A stretch of DNA of 38,888 bases from Nemertoderma westbladi (lineage: Eukaryota; Animalia; Xenacoelomorpha): the NCBI GenBank assembly GCA_032718475.1, contig JAUCBJ010003784.1:1-38888 (forward strand). The letters run 5' to 3'. Made by a program: the position numbers and the translations under genes. Of the stretch, positions 2,947 to 35,480 are shown one piece after another (position 1 is the stretch's first letter; the number at the start of each line of letters is the position of its first letter). A model generated the notes under the pieces. It searched no databases, had not been told where the DNA came from, and was given only the letters and a program-made list of their open reading frames with translations.

Positions 2947-5496
2947 ATGGCGAGTAAGTTGATCAGAAAGAGAAAGGCGGAGTCAGGAGGAAAGGAGATA
3001 CTGGTGGATTTCACCGAGAGACATCCGGAAGAGAAGACGAGAGGATACTACGAGAGGTTGGAAAGGGGTCACGCGGCACGAGCGTTGCAGGATCACTTCC
3101 GGGAGGCGCACGAACAGCGGCTGGTCGGGACCTACGGGACCCCGTCGCTAGACAACGCGATCTTCCAACATTTCCACTACGTAGTGAAAGGGGACGAGGC
3201 GAAGTTCGGGATTCCGAAGTACCCGAGGGAATCACCGAGGAAGGACTGGAAGAGGTTCATAGAGTCCGTCAACAGAGGAGGATATATGATCCTAGATGAC
3301 GAGGGAACTGTGGAAGACGAAGCGGGTTCGAGACGAGGAACGGCAGGGTCGGCCAGGACCATACTCCTACATTTGGCCGCGCCAAATGGGGACATCTTCT
3401 TATTCGACCTAGGGACGTATGGGAAGAAGGACGGGCCGAAATTAGACCGATTACCGAAAGCGGTACAAGTCTTAGTAAGAGAGAAGTCGACGACGAAAGT
3501 GGGATCGGCGATTCGCGAGGACGCGGAGAGGATCATCGGTCCAGACGCCACCAACCTCCTGGATATGCAGAAAGTCTTTATGGCTATGACGGCACCGGAT
3601 GGATTGGGGGTAGTCGGAAACACAGGCCAATGCGGGGCGGTGGCGATGGGCCAATTATTGGGGCTCGTATGCCACAAACCGATGGACTGGGGGAAGTTTA
3701 GGGAAGAATACGGAGGAGAACTAGCGAACTCGCTAAAGTGGGGAGCGAGACCGGGAAAGCAGGAGGTATATCAATTCCGCAGAGGAGCGATAAAGGTATA
3801 TCAGAAGCGATATATCCTACAGGAAGACTGGATCATGATAAGTTTGCTTAACTTATTTATGACCGTGGTTATCGAGAGGGAACCAGGGGCATTTCTGTTA
3901 TCGGGATCACCCCTAAGCTACAGGAGAGCCTTTAAGACGGCCTTTGACGGTCTGGTAGACCACCCGGGGCTGAAGGGCGAGTCGGTATACTATAACAGCC
4001 GGCATCTGGTAGACGGGGAGACAGATACACCGTATCAGAGATGGGAGCAGTTAGAAGCGGATAGACGAGAAGCAAAGCGACTGGAAGAAGTCGCCAGGCG
4101 GGAGAGGATAGAGGCGGAGGAGAGGGAAGAGGAGGCCAGGACACAGAGTTACGGCTTCGAGGAACAGGCGGGCCTAGACGAACTTCATTGGACTTCGTCA
4201 GGGAGTTCGGGGGAGTCTCTAGGGCGAGAATTGGGATGGACGGTGGGATCACCGAAACAGTCGACGTCAAGGTTGCAAACGATGCCCATACCAGCGGGCG
4301 CCGAGGGCGACCAACCGCCAAGGAAGTTAAGGGAGCTAGAGGGATGGAGAGCTACGGGCGAGAGCCAAGGCGGGAAGGGACATAGTGGATCCATCGGGAT
4401 ACCGGGGTTGGAAACACTACCAGAAGAGGAGGACGACGGCGACGAGTTCGGAGAGATGCCGCCCATCGAGAGGATAGGCCACTCGGACACAGACTGGGTT
4501 GGCGGAAGGGTGGTGACGGCCAGTGGGGCGAGGGCCTTCTGGAACAGATCCGGCAAGCGGACCTGGGTGCACGAGGAGCCGGCGATGGATTTCGCGGGGA
4601 GCACCATCAGGTTGGGCGAACAACCGGGGACGGCACCACGGATAGTATTCGGGGAGACGATGCCCGAGAGGGGCGGAGAGATCGATGTAGATAGAGAGGC
4701 CAACGTAGAGAAGTTCGCCTACCAGCGACTCCACAGACCGCGGAGATCGCTTGGGACGAAGGACGAGGTGGGACGGGAGACATTGGTACTCGGCTGCGAC
4801 TATTGTGGGAGACAGACCCACCAAGAAAAGAATTGCCTTTACTGGTTCCAAAAGGGAACCTTTTGTCTCTACTGCCGAGAAAAAAGCCACAGGATGGGGG
4901 CGTGCCCACGGTTGCATAATCGATGTACAAAGTGCCACTTTCGGGGACACTACGGACGCGAGTGCGACTGGATGAACGACGAGGAGAAGTTCACAAGGTT
5001 CGAGGAGTGGGCCGACGTCGGGGCCATGACGCGCCAGCGCATGAAGGCCCAGGAGTTTAAGTGGGGTTTCTTCCTTATCAATCAGGAGACTCACATGGAA
5101 ATCATAAAGCGGAGGCTACCGTTTACCTACCAAGAGGTAGCAACGGCGGCGTCGTACGCTGGAGTGATGAACACGCAAAGGTATCTGGACAGGTGGACGC
5201 CAGACAACCGAAGGGAGTTTAGGGATTTCTTGGCGGAGCACGTACCAAAGGCAATGAAAATGATCCTATGGGACGCCACCAGAGGGAGACAACCGGGCCA
5301 CTCTGAGGGGCCACCGGCGAAGCGATATCGGGCACTAATAACACCAGCGCCCAAGGAGCCAACGACCGGGATCAGTAGGGAGGTGGCGGCGAAGGTCCGA
5401 AAGCAGAAGGCGGATAATGCCAGAGGAACGGTGATAACCAAGAAACGACCCAGGGAAGAGGACGCCAGGGGGAACTATTCCCAGAGGAACAGATAG
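2947..5496 (+). CDS. Retroelement accessory ORF (849 aa): DEDDy 3'-5' exonuclease-like domain (~aa100-305), acidic/coiled and disordered linker, three CCHC zinc knuckles, basic NLS-like termini
   Basis: Uninterrupted ATG-to-TAG ORF. Motifs YMILDDEG (ExoI D117/E119), ILLHLAAPNGDIFLFDL, LPKAVQVLVREKSTTKVGSAIREDAERI (ExoII D192), NLLDMQ, GAVAMGQLLG..K and QKRYILQED (ExoIII-like). Three CX2CX4HX4C motifs at nt 4795-4965. Confidence 0.8.
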   Translation: MASKLIRKRKAESGGKEILVDFTERHPEEKTRGYYERLERGHAARALQDHFREAHEQRLVGTYGTPSLDNAIFQHFHYVVKGDEAKFGIPKYPRESPRKDWKRFIESVNRGGYMILDDEGTVEDEAGSRRGTAGSARTILLHLAAPNGDIFLFDLGTYGKKDGPKLDRLPKAVQVLVREKSTTKVGSAIREDAERIIGPDATNLLDMQKVFMAMTAPDGLGVVGNTGQCGAVAMGQLLGLVCHKPMDWGKFREEYGGELANSLKWGARPGKQEVYQFRRGAIKVYQKRYILQEDWIMISLLNLFMTVVIEREPGAFLLSGSPLSYRRAFKTAFDGLVDHPGLKGESVYYNSRHLVDGETDTPYQRWEQLEADRREAKRLEEVARRERIEAEEREEEARTQSYGFEEQAGLDELHWTSSGSSGESLGRELGWTVGSPKQSTSRLQTMPIPAGAEGDQPPRKLRELEGWRATGESQGGKGHSGSIGIPGLETLPEEEDDGDEFGEMPPIERIGHSDTDWVGGRVVTASGARAFWNRSGKRTWVHEEPAMDFAGSTIRLGEQPGTAPRIVFGETMPERGGEIDVDREANVEKFAYQRLHRPRRSLGTKDEVGRETLVLGCDYCGRQTHQEKNCLYWFQKGTFCLYCREKSHRMGACPRLHNRCTKCHFRGHYGRECDWMNDEEKFTRFEEWADVGAMTRQRMKAQEFKWGFFLINQETHMEIIKRRLPFTYQEVATAASYAGVMNTQRYLDRWTPDNRREFRDFLAEHVPKAMKMILWDATRGRQPGHSEGPPAKRYRALITPAPKEPTTGISREVAAKVRKQKADNARGTVITKKRPREEDARGNYSQRNR

Positions 5497-5948
5497 GTTC
5501 CCAGAGTCGATGGAGAGAGACTGGGACTTGGACGTGGTACACCTGGAAGGCGCCGCGTGGGACGTACGAACTACTAAGTACAAATTTAATTAATGCAAAT
5601 AATCATATAAGTGCAATTTGTATGTACGTACGTAGTAATTAGTAATCTAGAAATATATACGTTCGGAGTAAGTACTACAGTCATACAACCTTTCTCAATT
5701 AGCTACTGGGACTGGGGGATAACTGACTATGGGACTATGGACGAGACACCAGACAATTTCACACTTCTTGAGTGCGACGGCACAAGAGGGGGGGGGGATT
5801 TGTCAGAAGGGAAGAGGCAGTCGAAGTGAGGTTGAGGGACGGAATAATAGTGCGGAGTGCGAAGAGAGTGCGGACGCAATTCTAGTGTGATTGCGGGATT
5901 GTAGCGCACTTTTTGGTTGATGCTATCTTCTTACCGGGAAGATAGCAT

Positions 5949-5957
5949 GGGGGGGAG
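5949..5957 (+). other. Polypurine tract candidate (GGGGGGGAG) directly before TGTTAG; alternative PPT at 5784-5798 before TGTCAG at 5801
   Basis: G-rich purine run abutting a TGT, the canonical PPT/3' LTR junction arrangement. Confidence 0.5.
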
Positions 5958-6615
5958 TGTTAGCTTATTCAATCCCGCTAACATCCCATAAAGTTGTAAG
6001 CCGATAAGCAATATTGGGAGCCACGAGATTGGGCAATTAACCAACTCGTGCCATCCCAATAAGAGTGGGAAGGAAGCACACAATAAAGGGTCAGGGGCCA
6101 AACCCCTAACCCAGAGAGTACAGGTGGAGTGAACGGGAACACTCCACGGGGCGCCAACAAGGGTATCAACCAATCAGAGGGGGGCAAGGCATCGATTGAG
6201 TAGAGCAGTAAGGCCACCGTGCAATATAACCAATAACACAATGTCAGTAATTCAGTTATCTCAGTGCAGTGTAGGTTAGTTAGTTTAGATAGGGGAGCAC
6301 GGGACTTTAGTTACCGTATCCCGCCTTCCGTATATTATATTACAGTCATCATATCTATATCTTATACCTATCAATTATTATACACCGAATATCAGAACTC
6401 ATTCACTATTTCCGTTTACTCTTTATACACGGCGGGGACGCGTGAACTAAACACCGGATAAATCGGGATTCCTCCTGGATCCCGTCACACGGCGACGCGT
6501 ATAGCCCAAATAACACACCGGTCGGGGTTCAAACTGCCAACTCAACTGGATCCCGTCACAAGCAACCTACGAGCACTGCTTAATTAGAAAACCTACACAC
6601 AGACAGACTTTTACA
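5958..6615 (+). repeat. Putative 3' LTR (TGT...ACA); alternative start at 5801
   Basis: Starts TGTTAG after the PPT and ends TTTTACA just before the compositional shift. Internal TATAA (6225) with Inr-like TCAGTT (6252). The partner LTR is not in the window. Confidence 0.5.
6225..6257 (+). promoter_or_regulatory. LTR core promoter candidate (TATA plus Inr)
   Basis: TATAA at 6225-6229 lies ~29 nt upstream of the A in TCAGTT (6254). Confidence 0.4.
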
Positions 6616-7642: not shown

Positions 7643-9033
7643 ATGAACGATTATGAACGGTTAACAATGGTTAGACATATAAACGCGACCTTGCGATGTT
7701 GGTTCTTTCATTTAAGAAGAATCGCGAAAATCAGAAACTGTTTTGACAGTCGTACCTTGGAAACAATGGTGCACACGTTCATTACCAGTAGATTGGACCA
7801 AAACAACTCTCTTTATTATGGTCTACCAAAGAACCTTATCGGCAAACTACAGAAAGTTCAAAACGCCTCAGCACGTCTGATAAAACGCATCCGCAAGAGA
7901 GATCCTATTACCCCTACACTGAAGGAATTACATTGGCTGCGAGTAGAGAGAAGGATCGAGTATAAGATTGCACTATTAACACGTTCGTGGGGACTTCGCG
8001 CAGCACGTAGTCGGCAAGCCTTGGCATACGGTTCATATAGAGCAAATGGGGCATGTCTAGTTTGGACCCCATATCCCATGCTATAAATGTATTCATTCGA
8101 TATACAATCATATGTTAATCCGCTAGGTGGTGTCAAATTGTTATTCTGCAATTTCGTACTTACCAGTGCAGCACTGTACAGCAGTACCGTACCGGTAGGC
8201 CTATGTCATTACTTCTGAGTCTCTAGCGGATCCCCAATTAAATGTCTTAACTTTTCAATTTCGTAAAAGATAGACTTCATGATTCTCTACAGGCCACCAA
8301 AATTTCAGCTCAGGAAAATGAGGCCTTCCCGAGAAATTTAACATTTTCTAAAAACCACATAATCTGTCGTAGCTGACGTCAGACTGCATGATTTTTCACC
8401 AAACTTTACAAACTTTCTAAACTTTCTCTCTACTACTTACCTACTAAGTTTGGTTCAATTCCGAACGAGCGATGCCGAGAAATTCGCGTTCAAACATTTA
8501 CCAGACAGACGGACAGACAGACAGACGGACAGACGGACATGCCCCATTTGCCCTATATGAACCGTATGCAAAGGCTCGCCGACTACGTGTCTCGCCCCAC
8601 ATATAAGTGCGTTAATCATTTGGCTCCAAGTTACTTGGCCGAATTATTGGATCGATATGAACCATATCGTACCTTAAGAACAAGTGGTGCTGGACTGTTA
8701 CGCATTCCAACGTGTAGACTTACCTATTATGGTAGACGGTCGTTCTCCTTTGCAGCTCCAACGGTGTGGAACTCACTACCCTCGAAAATCAGAGACTCTC
8801 CCACTCTTGATTCGTTTAAGGCTCAGCTAAAAATCCATCTCTTCATAAAGCAATACGGGAATTAAGTTTCTCGGCGTGTTTTTAAACTTTTAAATTCATT
8901 AATGACCGATCTCTTTGTAAAGCAATACTTTTTAATGTTTTTAAAAATTTTAAATCGTTAAATTTTGTGCAGTGCAGCGCCTTTGATCATCACGTTAAAA
9001 GGCGCTATATAAATTATTATTATTATTATTATT
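7643..9033 (+). mobile_element. 5'-truncated L2/CR1-group LINE (ORF2 C-terminus, 3' UTR stem-loop, (ATT)n tail), interrupted by an insertion
   Basis: HLRRIAKIR...VHTFITSRLDQNNSLYYGLP...KLQKVQNASARLI...ITPTLKELHWLRV..RIEYKIALLT joins YKCVNHLAPSYL...GRRSFSFAAPTVWNSLP..FKAQLKIHLF*. Stem AGCGCCTTT/AAAGGCGCT at 8976-9006, then an ATT repeat tail. Confidence 0.9.
7982..8598. mobile_element. Non-autonomous inverted-repeat element (MITE, or Helentron-associated HINE/DINE-1-like) inserted in the LINE
   Basis: 54-bp inverted repeats at 8004-8057 and 8536-8589. GACA/GACG microsatellite at ~8503-8538. Flanked by ACA at 7979-7981 and 8599-8601, and removal restores the LINE frame exactly. Confidence 0.8.
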
Positions 9034-9100: not shown

Positions 9101-10255
9101 CACAACGAGCAACAATGGCCAACAATGAGCAACAACGAGCAACAATGAGCAATTATGCGCACCAATGACCAACAATGAGCAACAACAAGCAACAACGAGC
9201 AACAATGAGCAACAACGTGCAACAATGAGCAACAACGAACAACAATGAGCAACAACGAGCAACAATGAGCAATTATGAGCAACAATGACCAACAATGAGC
9301 AACAACGAGCTACAATGAGCAACAATGAGCAACAGCGTGCAACAATGAGCAACAACGAACAACAATGAGCAACAACGAGCAACAATGAGCAACAACGACT
9401 AACAATGAGCAACAACGAACAACAATGAGGCAACATGAGCAACAACGTGCAACAATGAGCACCAACGAGCAATAATATAAAGTACAACAACGAGCTACAA
9501 TGAGCAACAATGAGCAACAATGAGCAACAACGAACAACAATGAGCAACAACGAGCAACAATGGGCAACAACGAGCAACAATGACCAACAACGAGCAACAA
9601 TGATTCACAACGAGGAACAATGAGCAACAACGAGCAATAATAAAGTACAACAACGAGCAACAATGAGAAACAACGAACAACAACGAGCAACAATGAACAA
9701 CAACGAGCTACAATGACCGACAACGAGCAACAATGAGCAACAACGAGTTCTAATAAACTACAGCAACGAGCAACAATGAGCAACAACAAACAACAATGAG
9801 CAACAACGAGCAACAATGAGCAACAACGAGCGATAATAAAGTACAACAACGAGTAACAATGAGCAACAATGAGCAACAACAAGCAACAATGACCAACAAC
9901 GAGCAACAATGAGCAACAACGAGCATCAATGAGCAATAATGAGCAACAACGAGCAACAATGAGCAACACCGAGCAACAACGAGCAACAACGAGCAACAAT
10001 GAGCAACAACGAGCGATAATAAAGTACAACAACGAGCAACAATAAGCAACAACGAGCAATAATAAAGTACAACAACGGGCAACAATGAGCAACAAAGAAC
10101 AACAACGAGCAACAACGAGCAACAATGACCAACAACGAGCAACAATGAGTAACAACGAGTACTAATAAAGTACAACAACGAGCAACAATGAGCCACAATG
10201 AGCAACAACGAACAACAACGAGCAACAATGACCAACAACGAGCAACAATGAGCCA
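9101..10255. repeat. 10-bp minisatellite (AACAATGAGC/AACAACGAGC)n with occasional AATAAAGTAC variants
   Basis: Direct inspection; over 100 degenerate units. Confidence 0.95.
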
Positions 10256-10969
10256 CACTGCTTGCCGCTGCTGGAAGTAATTGATGCCATTTCATCCCCA
10301 TCCTCCATTATAAGGGACAGGTAGTTTTCGATTATATAAAATGGCTAATAGATGGGAAATATATGGGGGGGGGGGGGGGGGGGGTAGCCCCCCCCCCCCC
10401 CCCCCCATAGAAAACATATATATAACAAGCATAACAAGCATAGAAAACGATATTACCGATGTCAGTTTTAATATTTGGTGGAATGTAGTCTGTCCGTCTG
10501 TCGGTTGTCTGTCTGTCTATCTTACATTTTGACAGGCAGATTGGCAGACAGGTTACTACTAGGTTAAATTATTAGTTGTAGGCTTACTGTAGGCTATAAG
10601 AAATGAATATTTAATTTTGCGACGATTTTATTCAATAATGTCGGGAATTTAATTGGCTAATTTAACGTAAAGTAACGTGGCTAATTTTATATAAAAGTTG
10701 GTACCCTGTGTTATTTTTTGTGCTCTTCATATTTTCGACTGTGTTCGATTGTATTTGTCAGTTTTTGGAATGTGTTGGGGTGTGTTCGACTGTGTTCGGT
10801 CGTGTTGCTATTTAAAGCACCTTCCGATTGGTTTTGAATCAACAAATAAGCAAAATTTTAAACTGATAGGGACTGAATTGGATCCCAAATTGTTACTATG
10901 AGGAGATGGGGGGGGGGGGGGACCTACATATTTTACATATTATAACCCTCCCTCACTCTGACCACTTAA

Positions 10970-13927
10970 GGGGGGAGGACACCCCAAATATTTTTTTTTA
11001 TCAAAAATAACATTATTGCGTTTTTTTGTACAGAAATTAACGGCGATTTCAAATTTGAAATCGGTATTTTAATATCTCTTCTAGTTTTTGAATTACAGAA
11101 GTTCAAAAATGTGCTGTCAGTTACGAAAATTATCAAAAAATCGACATTTTTTCCGTTTTGGACAAATAAATTCAATGCTGCACTCAAAGAAATACAGTAT
11201 TGCGATCTCCAATCAATTTAACATTTTGGAGGGAAATTTGAAATTAATATGTATAGGTTTACAGTGTATATTTATAGTAGGCCTAGTTAAACCCGTTTGA
11301 TTAACTCGTACTGCTGTAATTCATGTAAACGGTTACCTACACGGTAAACTGTAATGTAACCTATCCACTTCTACCTTTATTCGTATATATTTTTGCAATA
11401 TAAATAGCGTAATATTGTCAACAAGAATGCCAAAACTGGGTGGGCGGAAGGGGACTTTTGCAGGGACTAGAAAACAGGAAATCGTTGTTAATCTACCAGT
11501 TGAGGAGTCAGATCTGATTCCCAAAGCGAATCAGAGTTCCCACACGACTGATCGTCTTGGAGTGATTGGGGATGCATTTACGGGTCCTCTGATTGGAAGT
11601 GAAGGATTCCAGTTTGTCGAATATTCAACCATGAAGGATTGTATGTCCGACATTCATCGACATCACTGCGGCGGTGTTCTGAAGTTTACTCCAAATCTCC
11701 AAAACGGATATTATTTCAATATATTTCTTGAATGTGAGACATGTGAATATATTTACAAATTCGAAAATGTAGTCAATGATATAAGCAATCATCCTAATGA
11801 GTCAAAGCGCCGTATAAACACTCGTACTATATTAGCGTTTCTTATGATTGGGGGAACACATGACACTGCTCGAAGATTTTCGGAGGCGATGGAAATGCCA
11901 AATCCTGTCAATCATAGTCGCTGGAGAGTTACTCTTAGGCGAATTACTGATGCTGTTAGAAACCTGGCGATTGGTAATTGTTACAATGAAGCTCAGAAGC
12001 TGCGTAATAAGCATGGGGCAGATACAGGTAACCCTATCTCTGGTAATAGTGAGTCAATATATAATGTATCTGTTACTTTTGATGCCACTTGGCAGAAACG
12101 TGGGCATATGTCCCTTTACTGTGTGGCCTATGTGATGTCTGCTGATACCGGCGCAGTTCTAGATATTTTTGTTGTCAGCAAATCATGTTATATTTGCCGC
12201 CATTATTCTAAACTTTGTACTATACACGTACCGCAACATAATTGTGACATAAATTTCCGTGGCAGTAGCAATGCCATGGAAACTTTTGCTGCGAAGCAAC
12301 TTTGGGCAAGATCCATTGAAAGGAACAGGTTGCGATATACAGAGCTGCTAAGCGATGGAGACAGTTCTGTTTTCAAAGAGCTCCGAGAGAACCCTCCATA
12401 TGGCATCGAGCACCCAGTAAAGAAATATGAGTGTATTAACCATATCGCTAAACGAGTAACCAATGGCCTTGAATCAGTCCGTAAAGAAAAAAAGGATCGG
12501 TGGTGTCAATGGGCTCTCTCAGCCACGGATCAGACAACTAGCCAGTTATTACCGGAACACTGTTGTTCACCATGTCTCTTCTGTAGACTACCGAACAATA
12601 GACCCAGACGAACTGGAGAACCTCATTGACACCATAATACGCGAGGTGAAAGCTACTGTATTTCATTACACGAATTACCCAGAATCTCAGCGGGAAAGAA
12701 AACATGAGGATTGTCCAATGCGGTGGTGCAAAGCGATCCAGAAAGACCCAACCTACAAGGACAAATCCTTCATCAAGCCGGAGTGGCATGCCCACATTAT
12801 GCCCGTATACAATAGACTTACAGATCGGAATCTATTGAAGCGTTGCCTTCCTGGTCTCACACAGAACCAAAACGAATCTATTCATGGTCGACTTTGGAAC
12901 AAATGTGGGAAGGATAAGTTCCAGGGAAGAACAACATTGGAATTCCATGCATATTATACTGCACTTGTGCACAACAGGGGTTCATCTGCAGCTCAGATAC
13001 TGTATATGAAGTTGGGCCTGGGGCCTGGGGTGAAGATGGCGACAGGGTGCAAGGTGAGAGACCGCAAGAGAACTTCACGAAGCCTCCTCAAACGCAAATC
13101 AAAGAAATTCCGCCCGGAAAACAACGATTCCGCTTACAAACCTGGAGGGTTTTAGAAATTTATTTCAGTTTGTTACTACGAAGTCCCCATAAATCTATAT
13201 ATTTGCTTTATAACAGACTGTTGAAACTTGTTCAGTTAGATTCGTCATGTCCTAATTAATAGTAAATAATATAACACATGAAATATACACCAGAATAATT
13301 TTTTTGTAACTTATACAGTATATAATATACTGTAGGCCCTATTTAAGTATGTTTCACTTTCAAATGCATTTTTCTCAAAATGAAATAATTTTGCACATTT
13401 TGTCTATCTACTTTTGAACTGCTCAGCCGATTTTGATTCTGTTTTCACTATATTGTAGCCCTTGCATAACTGTAAAATCTGAACAGACAAAATTTTGTAA
13501 AAACATATAGAAAATTTTTTTTTCGATTTTTTGTGTCAAAATTTTGAAATATATTGAAAATATCTGGTAATTATTACTAATGATGACATAAATTGATAAC
13601 CACTAACAATATCAAAATTTTGTCTGCTCAGATTATTGTCCACCCGATATTGATCAAAATAAAAAAAAAATTTTTTGAAAATATTGAAAAACAAAAAAGT
13701 AGATGCATTTATAAAAATTCGCATTATTTTGGGTGAAAAAAAGTGCAAAAATGGAAAAAAATATGAAAAAAATATTTTTTTTCGTTTCAAAATTTTTTTC
13801 CGAGATTTATACACCTTTTGGCAACAATATGGTGAAAAAAGTAAATTAATCGGACATATGGTTCTAAAATGACAGCTTATATACTCTAGAATGGCAAATA
13901 TTTATTAGTCTGGGGTGTCCTCCCCCC
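10970..13927 (+). mobile_element. Full-length Kolobok-type DNA transposon (2958 bp)
   Basis: Perfect 17-bp TIRs GGGGGGAGGACACCCCA (10970-10986) and its reverse complement (13911-13927). TTAA on both sides (10966-10969, 13928-13931). Purine-purine termini and an internal DDE transposase. Confidence 0.88.
11427..13155 (+). pseudogene. Kolobok/'Mutator-like' DDE transposase (~575 aa) with a single +1 frameshift in the A7 run at 12487-12493
   Basis: VTFDATWQKRGH (D), SKSCYIC, HNCDINFRGSSNAME, RYTELLSDGDS (D), KYECINHIAKR. After removing one A: RKEKRIGGVNGLS..LASYYR...CLPGLTQNQNESIH (E). Confidence 0.85.
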
Positions 13928-14413
13928 TTAACCAGTTTTACACCAGAATGCCTTTTTTCATTTGTTTTTAAGAAGAGCCTTTATACTGTAGATATGAGCG
14001 TGGGCTGGGAGCCATTCTGCGTCTGATGGAGCTAAAAGTCCCAACAGTGGGATTTCATGGTACATTCAGTGGTGCAGTGTAGTGAATAAAGACATGGTTG
14101 TGATTGGAGCTCAGAACATTCTGTGTAGATGTGAGATTGGAAGTTTAGACCCTGACATTTCTAAATACTGTAGCACACCCAATTGGTCGTTTATCCCACT
14201 CAGTGAAGGAAATCCGCTTGGTTAATTCCTGTGAGCAGCCAGCTGATATTATAACGTATTTTTTGTATGAATTTTTATGTATTTATATATGTAGTTAGTG
14301 AAAAACAAAGAGGTAACGCAACGTTAAAGCACAGCGAAAACAATCCTATCTGATAATACGAGACACATAAGCAATTATACATCTTATACAACTGTATTTT
14401 TACACAATTTTTT

Positions 14414-17938: not shown

Positions 17939-19874
17939 TTATGAGGCATCGGCTACACTGAACCAGGTTGACATCTTCTCACTGTATTCAGACTCAGTCC
18001 GCTTCTCTTTCCAGAAATGCTTGCCGTTTTTAAATACCTTCACATCATCACTTTCTCGAAGGATAATGGACTTTGTTTCGTCTTCACCGCTATCATCATC
18101 AGCATCTTCCGGCAGAGTCTGAATTAAGGAATCCTGATTACCCGGTGTCCATGGTGTGTTACTTCTAACGGATGTTTGTTCAGAATTAATATCTTGAGAG
18201 ACATTGTGTCCAGGTTCTTTAGCTACTGGGGGTTCATTAGGCCTATAAGTTTCGACCAGTGAGTTGGAATGTTTATCACTGTTTTTGTCTTTTTTTGAGT
18301 TATTTTCGTTGTTGGAATTCTCAGCGGCGATGTTACTTAGCTTTTCTTCCAGTGGCTTCGGTTCCTGAACAGAAACAGTCGAGCTATGTACACCATTATC
18401 AAGAACATGGTCGTCTAGCGATTGGGAACGTTGATGCTTATTAATGAAAGCTAGCTTATTTGGGTTTTGGTTATTAGGAATGTAGCCATTTGCGTGTGTT
18501 TCGCTCTTGTTTTTATCAACCAACGTGATTCTTCCACTACTACCTCTCTTAGGGTCACGTGGAATTCTAATAGAAGAATCACTTACCACTCTCTTTAACT
18601 TTATCATTCTAATTGGTTTATCATCTTCATGTGTTTCATTGGTCAACTCCTTATTGCTAGGAGTATCACTTTTATTGATATAGATAGAAACGTCACTTCC
18701 ACTTGAGATTCCACCCGCATCCGGTTGCTCTTTTGTTGTTTGTGTCTCCATTTTACTTTCATTTGTGGAGACTATTTCGCCATTCTGTGGTTGCATAGTC
18801 ATTTCGTGTGCTTCCGTTGGAATAAATGGAACAGATGATTTATCATTCGTAGTTTCATTGCTGTTCTGCTGATTTTCAGCTCTCTGATTTTCAGCTTTGT
18901 CTGTAACTTTATCTCTTCTATCAGAGGATATCCTCACATGCGGACTAATTGGTAATTGCTTTTCAGAAGCATCAGATATTCTTCTCACATTATCTTTATC
19001 AATATTCTTGGTAAGTTTAATGCTTCTGACAAGCTGGGGATCACTGGATGGGGATTCCCCATTCTCATTCATCTCATTAATGTTTGCTGGTAAAGATTTC
19101 TTGATTGGCGTTTGCATTTTTGTATTGTTTGGATTATTTGAAAAGGATGGATTGTTATCAATGTTTCTTTCGTAAGTGTCTGGACTTTCCCTGTGAATTA
19201 GAGCGTTTCCTTGGCGGGTCTGTTGCTTTTTCAAGATTTTTAATGGATGTTTTCCAAAGGTCGGCGGTTTCTCATTAACTATAATATTATTTTTGTCTAT
19301 GAGATTGTTCATACAGGTATCATTTTCAGATATATCTTTGACTGGTTGGGCACCTGTTTGTTGCTTTGGTATCTTGGGGACATGATTTAAATTAGGCAAT
19401 TGGTTAGGCTTCTTCTGATATTTGCGTCTGCTTAAGCCATCTGATTCGATCTTCTCTTTGTCAGGCCTAGATGGAACATTTTTTTGTGCAGGTTGGTAAT
19501 GATGTATTTGGGATTTTTGTTGTGAATTTGGGGGACTTTTCAAAGGTTGACGCGTCTTTTGGATCTTCGGTAATTTAAGAGGCGTTTGATTGCGTGCCGG
19601 AGACGGACGCCTGTTATTATATTTGTTCACCTTGTTTTGTAGTTGCGAAGACATCGGTAGGTACTTCGGGGGCTTCCACATAGTTCCGGTAGGAAACCTG
19701 GTAAAATACCAGCTCTGGTCCATCTTCGCCAATGCCGCCATGCTACGAAGATTCCTCGCCCAATCGCTGTCCCATCTCTTCAAACTATATGAACCCTTAA
19801 TTGTTTCTAGCTTTGAGACATGAATTCGTTGTTTTGCAGCCTTCTGTCGTTGTTCTTCCAGAACCCTCCAGTCA
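17939..19874 (-). CDS. Host gene last coding exon: end of the CFAP97/Hemingway (KIAA1430) domain plus a long low-complexity N/S/K/Q/E-rich tail
   Basis: Acceptor tattttgcag|T, phase 2. Reads SDWRVLEEQRQKAAKQRIHVSKLETIKGSYSLKRWDSDW... and is open to TAA at 17941-17939. Confidence 0.8.
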
Positions 19875-20150
19875 CTGCAAAATATATGGAGATACATACT
19901 CGACAAATTTGCACAACCATACAAAAAAGTGGCAACATCGCACAAAATGTAACACAATCGCACGGAATGTATTACACACCAAGCAAGATATACCATGAAA
20001 CAAAGACACCCACATAAAAATTGACACCACCCAGAGAAAGTGACAGTTACATCACCAAACTGTTGCTGCTCGAAGTGACTGATACAATTTGGTTATGTTC
20101 ACTGGACCCTCATCCCTCATCATTATTTTAATTGCGTTGGTTGAACTTAC

Positions 20151-25113: not shown

Positions 25114-26270
25114 TCCCCTAGGGGTGTGTTCCAGAACGTTTTTACTCATTATTATTCCAATGGGAGCAACTCCAGTTTCCAATTTACTGTGCGCTGTATT
25201 GTAACCATAGAGAGGTTCTGTACAGTTAAATTACTTTTAAAATTATTCAATAACATAACATTGCATCAACTTCAATTTCAAATGCCTGGTCGTATCTTAA
25301 TAAAATATTTAAAAAACTATTCCAAGATGGCAGTAGATGCATATATTAATTTTAAACTTCCAACCAAATACATTAAAAAACTATATTTATATAATCGTCT
25401 CCAACAAAAATATGGGATGGAAGACTGAAATGAAAATTCTCATAAAAGTGTGCCATAAGATAGGGATTCAGGTGATGTAAGTTTAATTGTAATGTAAACA
25501 ATGCAGGTCGGTTCTGTCGCGTTTCGGCAACTGTCACGTTTAGCGACAACACCTGGAGGGAGGCCTACCATTTGTTCATTTTAACAGTAAATTTATAACT
25601 AAACTATAAGGAACCGATTGGACTAATCGTCTTAATTAACTGTTCCTGGGCACAGCTTTTAAATTACAAATTACACAAAATCCACAATGATGCAAGCTGT
25701 ACATCAGTCGATTGATCGAAATAAAATTTCCTACCAAGATCACCAAAAACATTTACTATAGGTACACCCATGCAAAGTTCAGTGAAAAAACGCAAAATCT
25801 GCCGGACTATATATATATTTATTGTTTGAAAATAATTATTATAAAATCGTCTGAAACTTCTAATTTTAAAAGTTCAAAAGATCAGAGCTGGTTTGTTTTT
25901 AAGGACCTTTGTTGGCCGCAGGCGCTGTATCATGTGTTTCTTCCATGCCTCAATTATCCACCACCTCCCGCCCCGTATCTGGAAAAATGATTTAATTTTT
26001 CGTATTTTTATGTAAGCGCTGACTGTAAGCGCAGTGATTTCGCACTACAGTTGTGTCATTATGGAAGACAGTATAGTCGTTGGTGATTTCCAAAGCCAGC
26101 TATATAATGGGAGCCTGGCTTCTGGTTATGTGCTTTGGCTCGCCGTACCACACGAATTGAAAAGTTGAATTTACAGTTGAGGGGGGCATGGTTGTGAGTC
26201 AATTAAAATCGATGTAGTGACGTAATGAGTTCGCGGCACCGAGTTATTAAAACGTATAACGAAGTGCAGC

Positions 26271-27110
26271 CACATTGTCGCACTCACCTGTAATAGACCA
26301 CTTTGTCGCACTCACCTGTAATAGACCACATTGTCGCACTCACCTGTAATAGACCACATTGTCGCACTCAACTGTAATAGACCACATTGTCGCACTCACC
26401 TGTAATGGACCACATTGTCGCACTCACCTGTAATAGACCACATTGTCGCACTCAACTGTAATAGACCACATTGTCGCACTCACCTGTAATGGACCACATT
26501 GTCGCACTCACCTGTAATAGACCACATTGTCGCACTCACCTGTAATAGAACACATTGTCGCACTCACATGTAATAGACCACATTGTCGCACACACATGTA
26601 ATAGACCACATTGTCGCACTCACCTGTAATAGACCACATTGTCGCACTCACCTGTAATAGAACACATTGTCGCACTCACCTGTAATAGACCACATTGTCG
26701 CACTCACCTGTAATAGAACACATTGTCGCACTCACCTGTAATAGACCACATTGTCGCACTCACCTGTAATAGAACACATGGCCTCACTCACCTGTATTAG
26801 AACACATGGCCTCACTCACCTGTAATAGAACACATGGCCTCACTCACCTGTAATAGTCTACATTGTCGCACTCACCTGTAATAGACCACATGGCCGCACT
26901 CACCTGTATTAGACCACATGGCCTCACTCACCTGTAATAGACCACATTGTCGCACTCAACTGTAATAGACCACATTGTCTCACTCACCTGTAATAGACCA
27001 CATTGTCGCACTCACCTGTAATAGAACACATTGTCGCACTCACCTGTAATAGACCACATTGTCGCACTCACCTGCAATAGACCACATGGCCTCACTCACC
27101 TGTAATAGTC
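26271..27110. repeat. 28-bp minisatellite (~30 copies) CACATTGTCGCACTCACCTGTAATAGAC spanning the splice donor of coding exon 1
   Basis: Period of 28. The minus-strand unit is GTCTATTACAG|GTGAGTGCGACAATGTG. Confidence 0.95.
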
Positions 27111-27170: not shown

Positions 27171-27418
27171 GAACATTCCAAGAGTCAATCTTCAAACGCC
27201 ATCAAATCAACTACATCAGTGCTATCTGATTAAATCACTTAATATTTATTAAGTTAAAAGTCCTTTGAAATTCAAAAGAAAGATAAATAAAAAATAAACA
27301 TATCATTAATAATATTGTAAGAATATTTTAACTGCCAATAATGTAGCTCCTAAATTATATACATTATAGGATAAATGTGCTAAAACGTTCAGTTAAAAAA
27401 GTTATCAGGGTGGCATTC

Positions 27419-30400
27419 AATGTTACAAATAATCCTTTATTCGCCAAATTGATCTGTATGATATCAATGTTACAAATAATCCTTTATTCGCCCAATTTAT
27501 CTGTATGATATCAATGTTACAAATAATCCTTGTTCGCCCAATTTATCTGTATGATATCAATGTTACAAATAATCCTTTATTCGCCCAATTTATCTGTATG
27601 TTACAAATAATCCTTTATTCGCCAAATTGATCTGTATGATATCAATGTTACAAATAATCCTTGTTCGCCCAATTTATCTGTATGATATCAATGTTACAAA
27701 TAATCCTTTATTCGCCCAATTTATCTGTATGATATCAATGTTACAAATAATCCTTTGTTCGCCCAATTTATCTGTATGTTACAAATAATCCTTTATTCGC
27801 CAAATTGATCTGTATGATATCAATGTTACAAATAATCCTTGTTCGCCCAATTTATCTGTATGTTACAAATAATCCTTGTTCGCCCAATTTATCTGTATGT
27901 TACAAATAATCCTTTATTCGCCCAATTTATCTGTATGATATCAATGTTACAAATAATCCTTGTTCGCCCAATTTATCTGTATGATATCAATGTTACAAAT
28001 AATCCTTTGTTCGCCCAATTTATCTGTATGTTACAAATAATCCTTGTTCGCCCAATTTATCTGTATGTTACAAATAATCCTTTATTCGCCCAATTTATCT
28101 GTATGATATCAATGTTACAAATAATCCTTGTTCGCCCAATTTATCTGTATGATATCAATGTTACAAATAATCCTTTATTCGCCCAATTTATCTGTATGAT
28201 ATCAATGTTACAAATAATCCTTTGTTCGCCCAATTTATCTGTATGTTACAAATAATCCTTTATTCGCCAAATTGATCTGTATGATATCAATGTTACAAAT
28301 AATCCTTTGTTCGCCCAATTTATCTGTATGTTACAAATAATCCTTTATTCGCCAAATTGATCTGTATGATATCAATGTTACAAATAATCCTTGTTCGCCC
28401 AATTTATCTGTATGTTACAAATAATCCTTGTTCGCCCAATTTATCTGTATGTTACAAATAATCCTTTATTCGCCCAATTTATCTGTATGATATCAATGTT
28501 ACAAATAATCCTTTGTTCGCCCAATTTATCTGTATGTTACAAATAATCCTTGTTCGCCCAATTTATCTGTATGTTACAAATAATCCTTTATTCGCCCAAT
28601 TTATCTGTATGATATCAATGTTACAAATAATCCTTGTTCGCCCAATTTATCTGTATGATATCAATGTTACAAATAATCCTTTATTCGCCCAATTTATCTG
28701 TATGATATCAATGTTACAAATAATCCTTTGTTCGCCCAATTTATCTGTATGTTACAAATAATCCTTTATTCGCCAAATTGATCTGTATGATATCAATGTT
28801 ACAAATAATCCTTGTTCGCCCAATTTATCTGTATGATATCAATGTTACAAATAATCCTTGTTCGCCCAATTTATCTGTATGATATCAATGTTACAAATAA
28901 TCCTTTGTTCGCCCAATTTATCTGTATGTTACAAATAATCCTTTATTCGCCAAATTGATCTGTATGATATCAATGTTACAAATAATCCTTTATTCGCCCA
29001 ATTTATCTGTATGATATCAATGTTACAAATAATCCTTTATTCGCCCAATTTATCTGTATGATATCAATGTTACAAATAATCCTTTGTTCGCCCAATTTAT
29101 CTGTATGTTACAAATAATCCTTTATTCGCCAAATTGATCTGTATGATATCAATGTTACAAATAATCCTTGTTCGCCCAATTTATCTGTATGATATCAATG
29201 TTACAAATAATCCTTTGTTCGCCCAATTTATCTGTATGTTACAAATAATCCTTGTTCGCCCAATTTATCTGTATGTTACAAATAATCCTTTATTCGCCCA
29301 ATTTATCTGTATGATATCAATGTTACAAATAATCCTTTATTCGCCCAATTTATCTGTATGATATCAATGTTACAAATAATCCTTTGTTCGCCCAATTTAT
29401 CTGTATGTTACAAATAATCCTTTATTCGCCAAATTGATCTGTATGATATCAATGTTACAAATAATCCTTGTTCGCCCAATTTATCTGTATGATATCAATG
29501 TTACAAATAATCCTTTGTTCGCCCAATTTATCTGTATGTTACAAATAATCCTTGTTCGCCCAATTTATCTGTATGTTACAAATAATCCTTTATTCGCCCA
29601 ATTTATCTGTATGATATCAATGTTACAAATAATCCTTTATTCGCCCAATTTATCTGTATGATATCAATGTTACAAATAATCCTTTGTTCGCCCAATTTAT
29701 CTGTATGTTACAAATAATCCTTTATTCGCCAAATTGATCTGTATGATATCAATGTTACAAATAATCCTTGTTCGCCCAATTTATCTGTATGATATCAATG
29801 TTACAAATAATCCTTTGTTCGCCCAATTTATCTGTATGTTACAAATAATCCTTGTTCGCCCAATTTATCTGTATGTTACAAATAATCCTTTATTCGCCCA
29901 ATTTATCTGTATGATATCAATGTTACAAATAATCCTTTATTCGCCCAATTTATCTGTATGATATCAATGTTACAAATAATCCTTTGTTCGCCCAATTTAT
30001 CTGTATGTTACAAATAATCCTTGTTCGCCCAATTTATCTGTATGTTACAAATAATCCTTTATTCGCCCAATTTATCTGTATGATATCAATGTTACAAATA
30101 ATCCTTTATTCGCCCAATTTATCTGTATGATATCAATGTTACAAATAATCCTTTGTTCGCCCAATTTATCTGTATGATATCAATGTTACAAATAATCCTT
30201 TATTCGCCCAATTTATCTGTATGATATCAATGTTACAAATAATCCTTTGTTCGCCCAATTTATCTGTATGTTACAAATAATCCTTGTTCGCCCAATTTAT
30301 CTGTATGTTACAAATAATCCTTTATTCGCCCAATTTATCTGTATGATATCAATGTTACAAATAATCCTTTATTCGCCCAATTTATCTGTATGATATCAAT

Positions 30401-33400
30401 GTTACAAATAATCCTTTGTTCGCCCAATTTATCTGTATGATATCAATGTTACAAATAATCCTTTATTCGCCCAATTTATCTGTATGATATCAATGTTACA
30501 AATAATCCTTTATTCGCCCAATTTATCTGTATGATATCAATGTTACAAATAATCCTTTGTTCGCCCAATTTATCTGTATGATATCAATGTTACAAATAAT
30601 CCTTTATTCGCCCAATTTATCTGTATGATATCAATGTTACAAATAATCCTTTGTTCGCCCAATTTATCTGTATGATATCAATGTTACAAATAATCCTTTA
30701 TTCGCCCAATTTATCTGTATGTTACAAATAATCCTTTATTCGCCCAATTTATCTGTATGATATCAATGTTACAAATAATCCTTTATTCGCCCAATTTATC
30801 TGTATGATATCAATGTTACAAATAATCCTTTATTCGCCCAATTTATCTGTATGATATCAATGTTACAAATAATCCTTTATTCGCCCAATTTATCTGTATG
30901 AAATCAATGTTACAAATAATCCTTTATTCGCCAAATTGATCTGTATGATATCAATGTTACAAATAATCCTTTATTCGCCCAATTTATCTGTATGATATCA
31001 ATGTTACAAATAATCCTTTATTCGCCCAATTTATCTGTATGATATCAATGTTACAAATAATCCTTTATTCGCCCAATTTATCTGTATGATATCAATGTTA
31101 CAAATAATCCTTTATTCGCCCAATTTATCTGTATGATATCAATGTTACAAATAATCCTTTATTCGCCCAATTTATCTGTATGATATTAATGTTACAAATA
31201 ATCGTTTATTCGCCCAATTTATCTGTATGATATCAATGTTACAAATAATCCTTTATTCGCCCAATTTATCTGTATGATATTAATGTTACAAATAATCGTT
31301 TATTCGCCCAATTTATCTGTATGATATCAATGTTACAAATAATCCTTTATTCGCCCAATTTATCTGTATGTTACAAATAATCCTTTATTCGCCCAATTTA
31401 TCTGTATGATATCAATGTTACAAATAATCCTTTATTCGCCCAATTTATCTGTATGATATCAATGTTACAAATAATCCTTTATTCGCCCAATTTATCTGTA
31501 TGATATCAATGTTACAAATAATCCTTTATTCGCCCAATTTATCTGTATTATATCAATGTTACAAATAATCCTTTATTCGCCCAATTTATCTGTATGATAT
31601 CAATGTTACAAATAATCCTTTATTCGCCCAATTTATCTGTATGATATCAATGTTACAAATAATCCTTTATTCGCCCAATTTATCTGTATGATATCAATGT
31701 TACAAATAATCCTTTATTCGCCCAATTTATCTGTATGATATCAATGTTACAAATAATCCTTTATTTGCCCAATTTATCTGTATTATATCAATGTTACAAA
31801 TAATCCTTTATTCGCCCAATTTATCTGTATGATATCAATGTTACAAATAATCCTTTATTCGCCCAATTTATCTGTATGATATCAATGTTACAAATAATCC
31901 TTTATTCGCCCAATTTATCTGTATGATATCAATGTTACAAATAATCCTTTATTCGCCCAATTTATCTGTATGATATCAATGTTACAAATAATCCTTTATT
32001 CGCCCAATTTATCTGTATTATATCAATGTTACAAATAATCCTTTATTCGCCCAATTTATCTGTATGATATCAATGTTACAAATAATCCTTTATTCGCCCA
32101 ATTTATCTGTATGATATCAATGTTACAAATAATCCTTTATTCGCCCAATTTATCTGTATGATATCAATGTTACAAATAATCCTTTATTCGCCCAATTTAT
32201 CTGTATGATATCAATGTTACAAATAATCCTTTATTCGCCCAATTTATCTGTATGATATCAATGTTACAAATAATCCTTTATTCGCCCAATTTATCTGTAT
32301 GATATCAATGTTACAAATAATCCTTTATTCGCCCAATTTATCTGTATGATATCAATGTTACAAATAATCCTTTATTCGCCCAATTTATCTGTATGATATC
32401 AATGTTACAAATAATCCTTTATTCGCCCAATTTATCTGTATGATATCAATGTTACAAATAATCCTTTATTCGCCCAATTTATCTGTATGATATCAATGTT
32501 ACAAATAATCCTTTATTCGCCCAATTTATCTGTATGATATCAATGTTACAAATAATCCTTTATTCGCCCAATTTATCTGTATGATATCAATGTTACAAAT
32601 AATCCTTTATTCGCCCAATTTATCTGTATGATATCAATGTTACAAATAATCCTTTATTCGCCCAATTTATCTGTATTATATCAATGTTACAAATAATCCT
32701 TTATTCGCCCAATTTATCTGTATTATATCAATGTTACAAATAATCCTTTATTCGCCCAATTTATCTGTATGATATCAATGTTACAAATAATCCTTTATTC
32801 GCCCAATTTATCTGTATGATATCAATGTTACAAATAATCCTTTATTCGCCCAATTTATCTGTATGATATCAATGTTACAAATAATCCTTTATTCGCCCAA
32901 TTTATCTGTATGATATCAATGTTACAAATAATCCTTTATTCGCCCAATTTATCTGTATGATATCAATGTTACAAATAATCCTTTATTCGCCCAATTTATC
33001 TGTATGATATCAATGTTACAAATAATCCTTTATTCGCCCAATTTATCTGTATGATATCAATGTTACAAATAATCCTTTATTCGCCCAATTTATCTGTATG
33101 ATATCAATGTTACAAATAATCCTTTATTCGCCCAATTTATCTGTATGATATCAATGTTACAAATAATCCTTTATTCGCCCAATTTATCTGTATGATATCA
33201 ATGTTACAAATAATCCTTTATTCGCCCAATTTATCTGTATGATATCAATGTTACAAATAATCCTTTATTCGCCCAATTTATCTGTATTATATCAATGTTA
33301 CAAATAATCCTTTATTCGCCCAATTTATCTGTATGATATCAATGTTACAAATAATCCTTTATTCGCCCAATTTATCTGTATGATATCAATGTTACAAATG

Positions 33401-33801
33401 ATCCTTTATTCGCCCAATTTATCTGTATGATATCAATGTTACAAATAATCCTTTATTCGCCCAATTTATCTGTATGATATCAATGTTACAAATAATCCTT
33501 TATTCGCCCAATTTATCTGTATGATATCAATGTTACAAATAATCCTTTATTCGCCCAATTTATCTGTATGATATCAATGTTACAAATGATCCTTTATTCG
33601 CCCAATTTATCTGTATGATATCAATGTTACAAATAATCCTTTATTCGCCCAATTTATCTGTATGATATCAATGTTACAAATAATCCTTTATTCGCCCAAT
33701 TTATCTGTATGATATCAATGTTACAAATAATCGTTTATTCGCCCAATTTATCTGTATGATATCAATGTTACAAATAATCCTTTATTCGCCCAATGTATCT
33801 G
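27419..33801. repeat. 6.4-kb satellite with a 47-bp monomer (TGTTACAAATAATCCTTTATTCGCCCAATTTATCTGTATGATATCAA) and 46/38/37-bp variants; about 140 copies
   Basis: Direct inspection. A 300-bp higher-order repeat is present around 29040-30000. Confidence 0.97.
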
Positions 33802-35161: not shown

Positions 35162-35480
35162 GCGTGTTGGCTCGGTTCAGCACGTTAGAATAGATCTATT
35201 GCTACGCAGTAGGGCGTGTTGGCTCGGTTCAGGGCGTTAGAATAGATCTATTGCTACGCAGTAGGGCGTGTTGGCTTGGTTCAGGGCGTTAGAATAGATC
35301 TATTGCTACGCAGTAGGGCGTGTTGGCTTGGTTCAGGGCGTTAGAATAGATCTATTGCTACGCAGTAGGGCGTGTTGGCTTGGTTCAGGGCGTTAGAATA
35401 GATCTATTGCTACGCAGTAGGGCGTGTTGGCTTGGTTCAGGGCGTTAGAATAGATCTATTGCTACGCAGTAGGGCGTGTT
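35162..35480. repeat. 52-bp tandem repeat, 6 copies plus a partial
   Basis: GCGTGTTGGCTYGGTTCAGGGCGTTAGAATAGATCTATTGCTACGCAGTAGG at 35162, 35214, 35266, 35318, 35370 and 35422. Confidence 0.95.

Follow-up and report, generated by a model that had tools for sequence, protein, structure and literature searches.

Results

A BEL/Pao pol end and an intact accessory gene

The 38,888-nt stretch of DNA analyzed in this work, hereafter the window, comes from the xenacoelomorph Nemertoderma westbladi (GenBank assembly GCA_032718475.1, contig JAUCBJ010003784.1, positions 1 to 38,888, forward strand). It opens with the 3' end of the pol gene of a BEL/Pao long terminal repeat (LTR) retrotransposon (2-1522, +; truncated by the window start), and downstream follows an accessory open reading frame (ORF; 2947-5496, +) of 849 codons free of stops. 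The ORF encodes a predicted DEDDy exonuclease domain, an acidic low-complexity linker, a triple-CCHC zinc domain and a basic tail.

The pol frame matched the Pfam families DUF5641 (E 4e-25), Integrase_H2C2 (E 7e-7) and the integrase core rve (E 3e-5). Only the integrase end of pol lies in the window, and DUF5641 marks it as BEL/Pao-type. A stop codon at 443-445, not mentioned in the initial annotation of this DNA, interrupts the integrase frame; in the window copy, pol is broken and the extra ORF is whole. The same annotation had described an intact 849-codon ORF on the pol strand with a purine-rich composition like that of pol. Both hold, with purine fractions of 0.60 in pol, 0.63 in the accessory ORF and 0.47 in the flank (GC content 0.52, 0.56 and 0.35). 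It had also placed the ORF between integrase and a polypurine tract (PPT) with LTR: an integrase does lie 5' and PPT candidates lie 3', whereas the LTR edges are not fixed.

Pol and accessory ORF are parted by a 1.4-kb spacer that contains a purine-rich tandem array with a 36-nt unit (1672-2484, +; about 19 + 12 copies, 86-88% matches in repeat analysis). Two PPT candidates with adjoining TGT lie 3' of the ORF on the plus strand, one at 5784-5798 (TGT at 5801, joint span 5784-5803), the other at 5949-5957 (TGT at 5958, joint span 5949-5960). The putative 3' LTR would extend over 5801-6430 (+), with both edges uncertain, an AATAAA at 6082 and possible ACA ends at 6384-6560. Just behind pol lies a further PPT-like run (1565-1578), which is why the ORF was also considered as a possible gag of a second element. 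This reading was rejected in view of its predicted nuclease fold, the lack of a capsid domain and its place behind pol in 41 other elements.

Depth was summed over contigs from three DNA runs and is not a copy number. Summed depth (X1) reached comparable levels over pol (48,000-92,000) and the accessory ORF (33,000-67,000), peaked over 5701-6300 (123,000-131,000) and was about 100-200 in two flank bins. This profile fits a repeated element bearing an LTR.

The N-terminal domain resembles EXD2, WRN and Nibbler

The N-terminal domain (amino acids (aa) 66-318; 3142-3900, +) is predicted to adopt the DEDDy-type 3'-5' exonuclease fold of the WRN/EXD2/Nibbler/Egalitarian group. As Pfam gives no match to the window protein at E<=1, this assignment builds on profiles and a structural model. 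No match was found in a PDB search with the single sequence or in word-indexed protein searches with the protein and with a first alignment, and a Pfam search of 26 nuclease domains returned no informative family. A word-indexed search with the zinc-domain alignment gave three matches, and phmmer against 1.84 billion representatives gave 77, of which 76 were reached through residues ~580-820 and one was a repeat artefact. Long phmmer matches carry the N-terminal nuclease domain too. When 14 held-out proteins of at least 560 aa, found via the zinc domain only, were scored on the nuclease profile, 13 reached 18.9-130 bits (best of 280 shuffled controls, 2.3 bits). DNA_pol_A_exo1 (PF01612) was matched just under the cut-off by two of 39 scanned homologues (E 6e-5 and 2.5e-4). 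The accessory gene escapes Pfam and is hence probably under-annotated.

Against the PDB, a profile of 33 homologues retrieved EXD2 (E 3.3e-14), WRN (5e-9), trypanosome RNase D (TbRND; 8e-9, aligned best over the knuckles) and also Egalitarian (6e-6). A second profile, built from 26 nuclease domains picked for intact acids, had EXD2 as its sole match (E 2.8e-12); it lines up the ExoI and ExoII motifs with EXD2, and ExoIII weakly. D117-x-E119 (ExoI; 3295-3303, +) and D192 (ExoII; 3520-3522, +) align to EXD2 in this way, and Y289-x3-E293 (3811-3825, +) would form ExoIII. The DEDDy motifs quoted in the initial annotation are present (LDDEG at aa 116, IREDA at 189, RYILQED at 288), except that the last of the catalytic positions, filled by D117, E119, D192, Y289 and E293, holds a glutamate (YxxxE, followed by D294) instead of the aspartate usual in most relatives. 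In 83 domains, the ExoIII acid column holds D in 46 and E in 19, with a weak EXD2 alignment at this point.

An AlphaFold model of aa 66-318 (predicted local distance difference test (pLDDT) 84.9, predicted template modeling score 0.85) has the RNase H-like DnaQ fold. In VIA structural alignments, the apicoplast polymerase exonuclease scored Z 14.5 (root-mean-square deviation 3.6, 183 residues aligned), WRN 14.3 (3.1, 176), Nibbler 14.2 (3.2, 185), RNase D 13.4 (3.0, 169), EXD1 12.6, Egalitarian 12.5 and TbRND 12.3; several top scores are tied. At E<=0.001, Foldseek returned 83 matches; those listed belong without exception to the DEDDy superfamily, with Egalitarian on top (E 3e-6). For one homologue (P0005), the first ESM Atlas match (0.86) belongs to a DNA_pol_A_exo1 plus zf-CCHC cluster, which is a lead only. 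Profile (EXD2 at E 3.3e-14) and model (Z 12-14.5) hence agree on the DEDDy fold that the motifs had initially suggested.

By hydropathy, the protein has no signal peptide or membrane segment, in line with the initial view that it lacks env features: its N-terminus is basic, and its most hydrophobic 19-residue stretch (mean 1.44) falls on a helix of the nuclease model. The signal peptide and membrane anchor of an env-like fusion glycoprotein are, by the same measure, absent.

A conserved zinc domain follows a variable linker

The acidic G/S/P-rich linker (aa 350-600; 3994-4746, +) is not conserved among relatives. The zinc domain behind it (aa 604-782; 4756-5292, +) is conserved and begins with three CX2CX4HX4C knuckles at C617, C640 and C660 (4795-4965), already recognized in the initial annotation. 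They are part of a conserved domain of ~130-180 residues, whose helical extension carries the motifs F-x3-D-x-G-x2-T-x2-R and WGFF. The zinc-domain model has a pLDDT of 76; a fold search gave a best Z of 5.3 and no Foldseek match at E<=0.001, which does not prove a new fold. The best Foldseek row, absent from the VIA listing, was TbRND, a weak match (E 0.1, template modeling score 0.16 over 60 columns). In homologue P0002, the zinc domain is duplicated in tandem.

Relatives carry the gene behind BEL/Pao integrases

Relatives were found in metagenomes via a DNA pattern for the zinc motif, which occurs once in the window and in none of 100 shuffles. At least 120 stretches were retrieved, 80 of them with flanks (numbered loci, L), and 78 of these 80 match the zinc-domain profile. 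In viral contigs, neither the pattern nor the integrase had a match, and no gene-free BEL/Pao set was obtained. In 41 of the 48 loci with sufficient upstream DNA, a BEL/Pao integrase precedes the gene in the same orientation, so that the linkage to BEL pol proposed from the window copy recurs in other copies. Besides these 41, the 78 loci include 30 with too little upstream DNA, two of which show the tip of pol (L041, L044), and seven with room yet no integrase. Among the seven, long N-terminal extensions use up the contig in L005 and L075, L022 is internally deleted, and L008, L032, L012 and L052 have no gag-pol match.

BEL/Pao elements (Belpaoviridae) are defined by a gag-pol ORF with the order protease, reverse transcriptase, RNase H, integrase, by LTRs and by a PPT (PMC8742986). 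All ten long upstream polyproteins scanned contain RVT_1, Peptidase_A17 (E<=2e-39) and DUF5641, and six contain DUF1759; most have DUF1759 or a protease, and the relatives show the BEL/Pao order from gag to integrase. Paired LTR-like repeats, as expected for linked copies, are seen in L023, where two of 797 nt (95%) enclose integrase and zinc domain; L013 has an identical 103-nt repeat, and the contigs of L033, L060, L062 and L065 close into single-element circles. In many relatives, the LTR end (after ACA) is followed by a primer binding site (PBS) that reads TGGCGCCCAAC; sites of the TGGCGCCC type stand there in L013, L029, L031, L033, L036, L037, L039, L053, L060, L062, L065, L066, L068, L069 and L076. 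We take this PBS to be of the tRNA-Lys type. The 5' half of the element in the window, its PBS included, falls outside the window. For the family, in contrast, the profile of the International Committee on Taxonomy of Viruses lists tRNA-Arg or tRNA-Gly primers (PMC8742986). Taken together, the ORF is almost certainly an old accessory gene kept with the pol of a BEL/Pao LTR retrotransposon lineage.

Several loci deviate from the common layout. L022 (5187-10931), an internally deleted element without pol match, keeps a gag remnant and the accessory gene, flanked by LTR-like repeats. L008, L032 and L072 share a single 507-aa homologue whose catalytic columns read N-E-E-H-N. No gag-pol match lies within 1.3-2.3 kb upstream of it, and it is possibly domesticated or far from pol. 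The accessory ORF is extended at its N-terminus by 500-900 residues, with no Pfam match, in L005 (40-4815, -), L051 (5002-9657, -), L043 (1226-5476, +) and L015 (335-4318, -). L051 has an additional 1589-aa frame downstream, also without Pfam match.

Co-inheritance, selection and loss of catalytic residues

Tree distances of integrase and ORF correlate with r 0.92 (Mantel p 0.0005) across the 35 elements for which sufficient integrase and the two domains of the accessory protein were present. Of the 20 integrase splits with support, 16 are found again in the ORF tree and none is contradicted by a supported split there, across integrase identities that span 21-88%. The window element forms a long branch of unsure placement, its integrase being at most 35% identical to any other. 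A single gain of the accessory gene is likely, in a tree without gene-free outgroup.

In 13 hand-picked related pairs, pN was below pS throughout for both domains, and dN/dS ranged from 0.06 to 0.62 where unsaturated. The accessory gene is under purifying selection, and this includes a clade of catalytically dead elements. The survey of catalytic sites covered 83 non-redundant nuclease domains, 74 of which span all sites. The four acids are kept in 43 of these 74, as DEDD (34), DEDE (6, the window copy among them) or DEED (3), and are not kept in the other 31. Fifteen catalytically dead elements form a single branch (support 100/99). Judged by the aligned columns, one clade has lost its catalytic residues yet kept the gene under purifying selection.

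Pol-end junctions and routes of expression

The accessory protein could be made in two ways. In many relatives, an ATG stands about 50 codons before the nuclease domain (69 in the window), which implies a free protein. In only 9 of 37 elements, the window among them, a splice acceptor lies within 70 nt of the start ATG; a TATA-like word at 2483 of the window is a guess.

A second route is suggested by the sequence of the pol ends. In 14 of the 37 elements whose pol end is covered by the contig, pol ends in UGA-C, mostly UGA-CGG or UGA-CAA-UU (L002, L007, L029, L031, L033, L034, L037, L062, L065, L066, L068, L069, L076 and L080; L021 is similar). In 11 of these 14, the pol frame stays free of stops for 435-822 nt up to the nuclease domain, compared with 2 of the 23 others. 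The frame changes within the linker in L002, L037 and L062 and meets a stop in L033 and L066, which is what decayed copies should show. TCGG stands at +18/+19 in twelve junctions, that of L021 among them, and in 0 of 28 others. Around this fixed TCGG bulge, a stem-bulge-stem of fixed geometry pairs 12-13 of 13 positions in 10 of the 12 TCGG junctions, with two to five pair types per stem position (covariation). Shuffles match that pairing in at most 0.4%, and other junctions average 7.5 at the same offset; the geometry was derived from the very sequences scored. Minimum free energy z-scores alone separate the junction groups poorly (mean -1.33 vs -0.65), and no fixed downstream partner was found for the bulge. 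The stem-bulge-stem belongs to the dead-nuclease clade, as do 12 of the 14 fusion-type elements.

UGA-CGG and CAA-UUA stop contexts are leaky in viruses, and the env-like gene of the retrotransposon SIRE1 is made by stop-codon suppression. Like SIRE1 and viral readthrough signals, the junctions seen here would join pol to a downstream ORF through a leaky stop with a 3' context and a stem-loop behind it. SIRE1 differs in element family and cargo, and here the evidence is sequence in relatives. Recoding of UGA by the host as a cause of the open frames was rejected because UGA is absent from the 2,100-codon gag-pol frames of these elements. The UGA-C junctions thus suggest that, in these relatives, readthrough could yield a fusion to Pol.

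Discussion

Proposed role of the accessory protein

We tentatively favor an RNA-binding 3' exonuclease that would act on the element's own RNA or its replication intermediates, a reading to which we give slightly less than an even chance. The zinc domain would grip single-stranded RNA and the EXD2/WRN-type DEDDy nuclease would trim RNA 3' ends; that the one may feed the other is an idea taken by analogy from trypanosome RNase D, in which deletion of the fingers nearly abolishes RNA binding and slows cleavage (PMC7797062). The accessory protein would be made as a stand-alone product from its own ATG, and in some relatives, not in the window copy, also as a Gag-Pol-nuclease fusion via UGA readthrough, which would bring it into the particle. 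As the predicted fusion would place the protein with reverse transcriptase and integrase, the element's own RNA or reverse-transcription intermediates are the leading candidate substrate, ahead of the other readings. RNA binding might be the core job and cutting optional, since the gene was retained without catalysis in the dead clade.

Several observations weigh against such a role. The closest cellular folds (Nibbler, EXD1, Egalitarian) serve host small RNAs or RNA transport and fit the rival explanations equally, and E293 in place of the last aspartate may weaken catalysis. The linkage to pol has its gaps, with seven loci that have room yet no integrase, L008/L032 (one protein) and L012 being without any gag-pol match; 67 of the 80 flanked loci share two assembly-name prefixes, which limits what can be read from them about host breadth. 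The fusion argument is drawn from distant relatives, whose integrases are at most 35% identical to that of the window. In the window itself, pol ends in TAG with another stop four codons on, the ORF follows behind the 1.4-kb spacer in another frame, and there is no readthrough signal. In the relatives, folding an alignment of 13 junctions without guidance yielded no consensus structure, as the alignment split the arms, and L062 and L080 fall outside the fixed stem geometry. Finally, the amino acids of the open linkers are poorly conserved, and their synonymous excess is slight and also present outside the pol frame.

The protein might instead serve counter-defence, which we consider possible, if clearly less probable. 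It would over-trim or sequester piRNAs, siRNAs or their precursors, or act as a decoy of Nibbler, EXD1 or Mut-7, and so weaken silencing of the element. Nibbler (Z 14.2) and EXD1 (Z 12.6) are indeed among the closest folds, a dead yet conserved clade would suit a decoy, and the conserved start codon, some 50 codons ahead of the domain, implies that the protein is made free. Moreover, overexpression of TbRND lowers guide RNAs (PMC7797062). However, any fusion to Pol by readthrough would be rare and end up in the particle. The readthrough-type junctions of the relatives favor a role beside Pol over a stand-alone anti-piRNA factor. Arms-race proteins, moreover, usually lack the strong purifying selection and the strict co-descent with integrase seen here.

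An Egalitarian-like transport adaptor is unlikely. In this case, the nuclease fold would be an RNA-binding surface that links the element RNA to motors and carries it to the germ line, replacing Env. The env position of the gene and the catalytically dead clade would agree with it, and Egalitarian is both the top Foldseek match (E 3e-6) and a profile match (E 6e-6). EXD2 is, however, by far the better sequence match, and most lineages, the window copy included, keep the catalytic acids (43/74).

Slightly less probable still is a DNA-directed 3'-5' exonuclease for proofreading cDNA, trimming its ends for integrase or clearing RNA:DNA hybrids inside the particle. WRN and polymerase proofreading domains tie for the top structural score (Z 14.3-14.5), EXD2 structures were solved with both GMP and dGMP, and a Pol fusion is predicted in 14 relatives. 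Yet 12 of these 14 fusion-type elements sit in the catalytically dead clade, and that this clade is under selection speaks against an indispensable cDNA-editing role; CCHC knuckle arrays, in addition, mostly bind RNA. That the gene is a mere passenger, a recently captured host gene or chance neighbour without role for the element, is suggested by the few loci with no detectable gag-pol nearby (L008/L032/L072, L012) and is very improbable: the integrase linkage holds in 41/48 loci, the trees agree although integrase identities span 21-88%, selection is purifying, and the gene is one long ORF with a depth like that of pol.

The RNA-directed role and counter-defence may also be combined. We may speculate that a large undescribed BEL/Pao branch acquired an EXD2-like nuclease a single time in the distant past, joined it to a new RNA-binding zinc domain and has since used it in place of Env. 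As a free protein it would disarm or exploit host small-RNA trimming. Via a new UGA stem-bulge-stem signal it would also handle RNA as a subunit of the particle tethered to Pol, and active and pseudo-nuclease versions would coexist. This wider picture we regard as conceivable and rather doubtful.

Relation to known systems

DEDDy third genes as such are already known. In bdelloid rotifers, the Gypsy-type LTR retrotransposons Juno and Vesta and the Athena/Terminon elements carry a DEDDy ORF3 (Rodriguez et al. 2017, PMC5408684; restated in PMC6431247 and PMC6338049), in line with the Gypsy-superfamily cases that the initial annotation had named; for the nematode precedent it also named, the word nematode occurs 0 times in PMC5408684. 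The rotifer ORF3 is, like the gene studied here, a putative DEDDy-type 3'-5' exonuclease ORF in the env position with its catalytic acids kept. Its carriers are not BEL/Pao, whereas that of the window is, so that the latter does not belong to Juno, Vesta or Athena. The rotifer motif is given there as DEED, whereas we counted DEDD 34, DEDE 6 and DEED 3 times in 74 domains. A triple-CCHC domain, a dead clade and a readthrough junction are found here, and none is described for the bdelloid ORF3 in the portion of the source compared.

TbRND (PDB 7c42-7c4c) shares the DEDDy domain (Z 12.3) and C-terminal CCHC fingers, and it is a cellular enzyme with four fingers beside the nuclease and a preference for U-rich RNA (PMC7797062). 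Here, in contrast, three knuckles sit in a larger domain ~280 residues from the nuclease, on a mobile element. Convergence thus seems likelier than orthology. The initial annotation named no precedent for a DEDDy ORF fused to three CCHC knuckles; with TbRND as a cellular case of a DEDDy domain followed by CCHC fingers, the layout as such is not unique. EXD2, WRN-exo, Nibbler (Mut-7), EXD1 and Egalitarian (Pfam DNA_pol_A_exo1) share fold and Exo motifs with the accessory nuclease, EXD2 being the best sequence match. They are, however, host genes, none with this zinc domain, and their identity to the accessory nuclease, 10-20%, is too low to point to a donor of the gene.

Known extra genes of BEL/Pao elements are env-like, for example in roo and Tas, in the sources consulted (PMC8742986; PMC3118150, PMC13524379). 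They likewise follow integrase and encode an env-like fusion glycoprotein, whereas here a soluble nuclease-zinc protein is found. The initial annotation named no earlier BEL/Pao case, and in the full-text literature we found no BEL/Pao element with a DEDDy third gene, a scope that leaves out Repbase, Dfam, supplements (those of PMC3118150 may list members) and most subscription papers. New here, within that scope, are the BEL/Pao carrier, the fused zinc domain, the split into active and dead versions and the candidate readthrough element.

Since the rotifer report of 2017, the presence of nuclease genes in the env slot of LTR retrotransposons has called for an explanation. The present family offers many intact, divergent and selected examples in a different element family, together with a zinc domain that matches no solved structure and a candidate for a new readthrough RNA element. 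Active and dead versions, as well as free and predicted Pol-fused versions, provide natural controls that make the question testable.

Other features of the window

A DNA transposon at 10966-13931 has 20-nt inverted ends starting with TTAA and a PF20700 transposase (E 7e-49) split over the frames 11427-12629 and 12463-13155; presumably it is Kolobok-like. A ~620-nt insertion with 54-nt inverted arms (7979-8599) is cleanly skipped in three DNA runs and is a polymorphic insertion resembling a miniature inverted-repeat transposable element. Tandem arrays with units of 10, 28, 47 (142 copies) and 52 nt lie at 9102-10257, 26270-27108, 27417-33801 and 35162-35480. A 685-aa low-complexity frame rich in N, Q, K and P (17939-19996, -), which has no Pfam match, is probably a large exon of a host gene.

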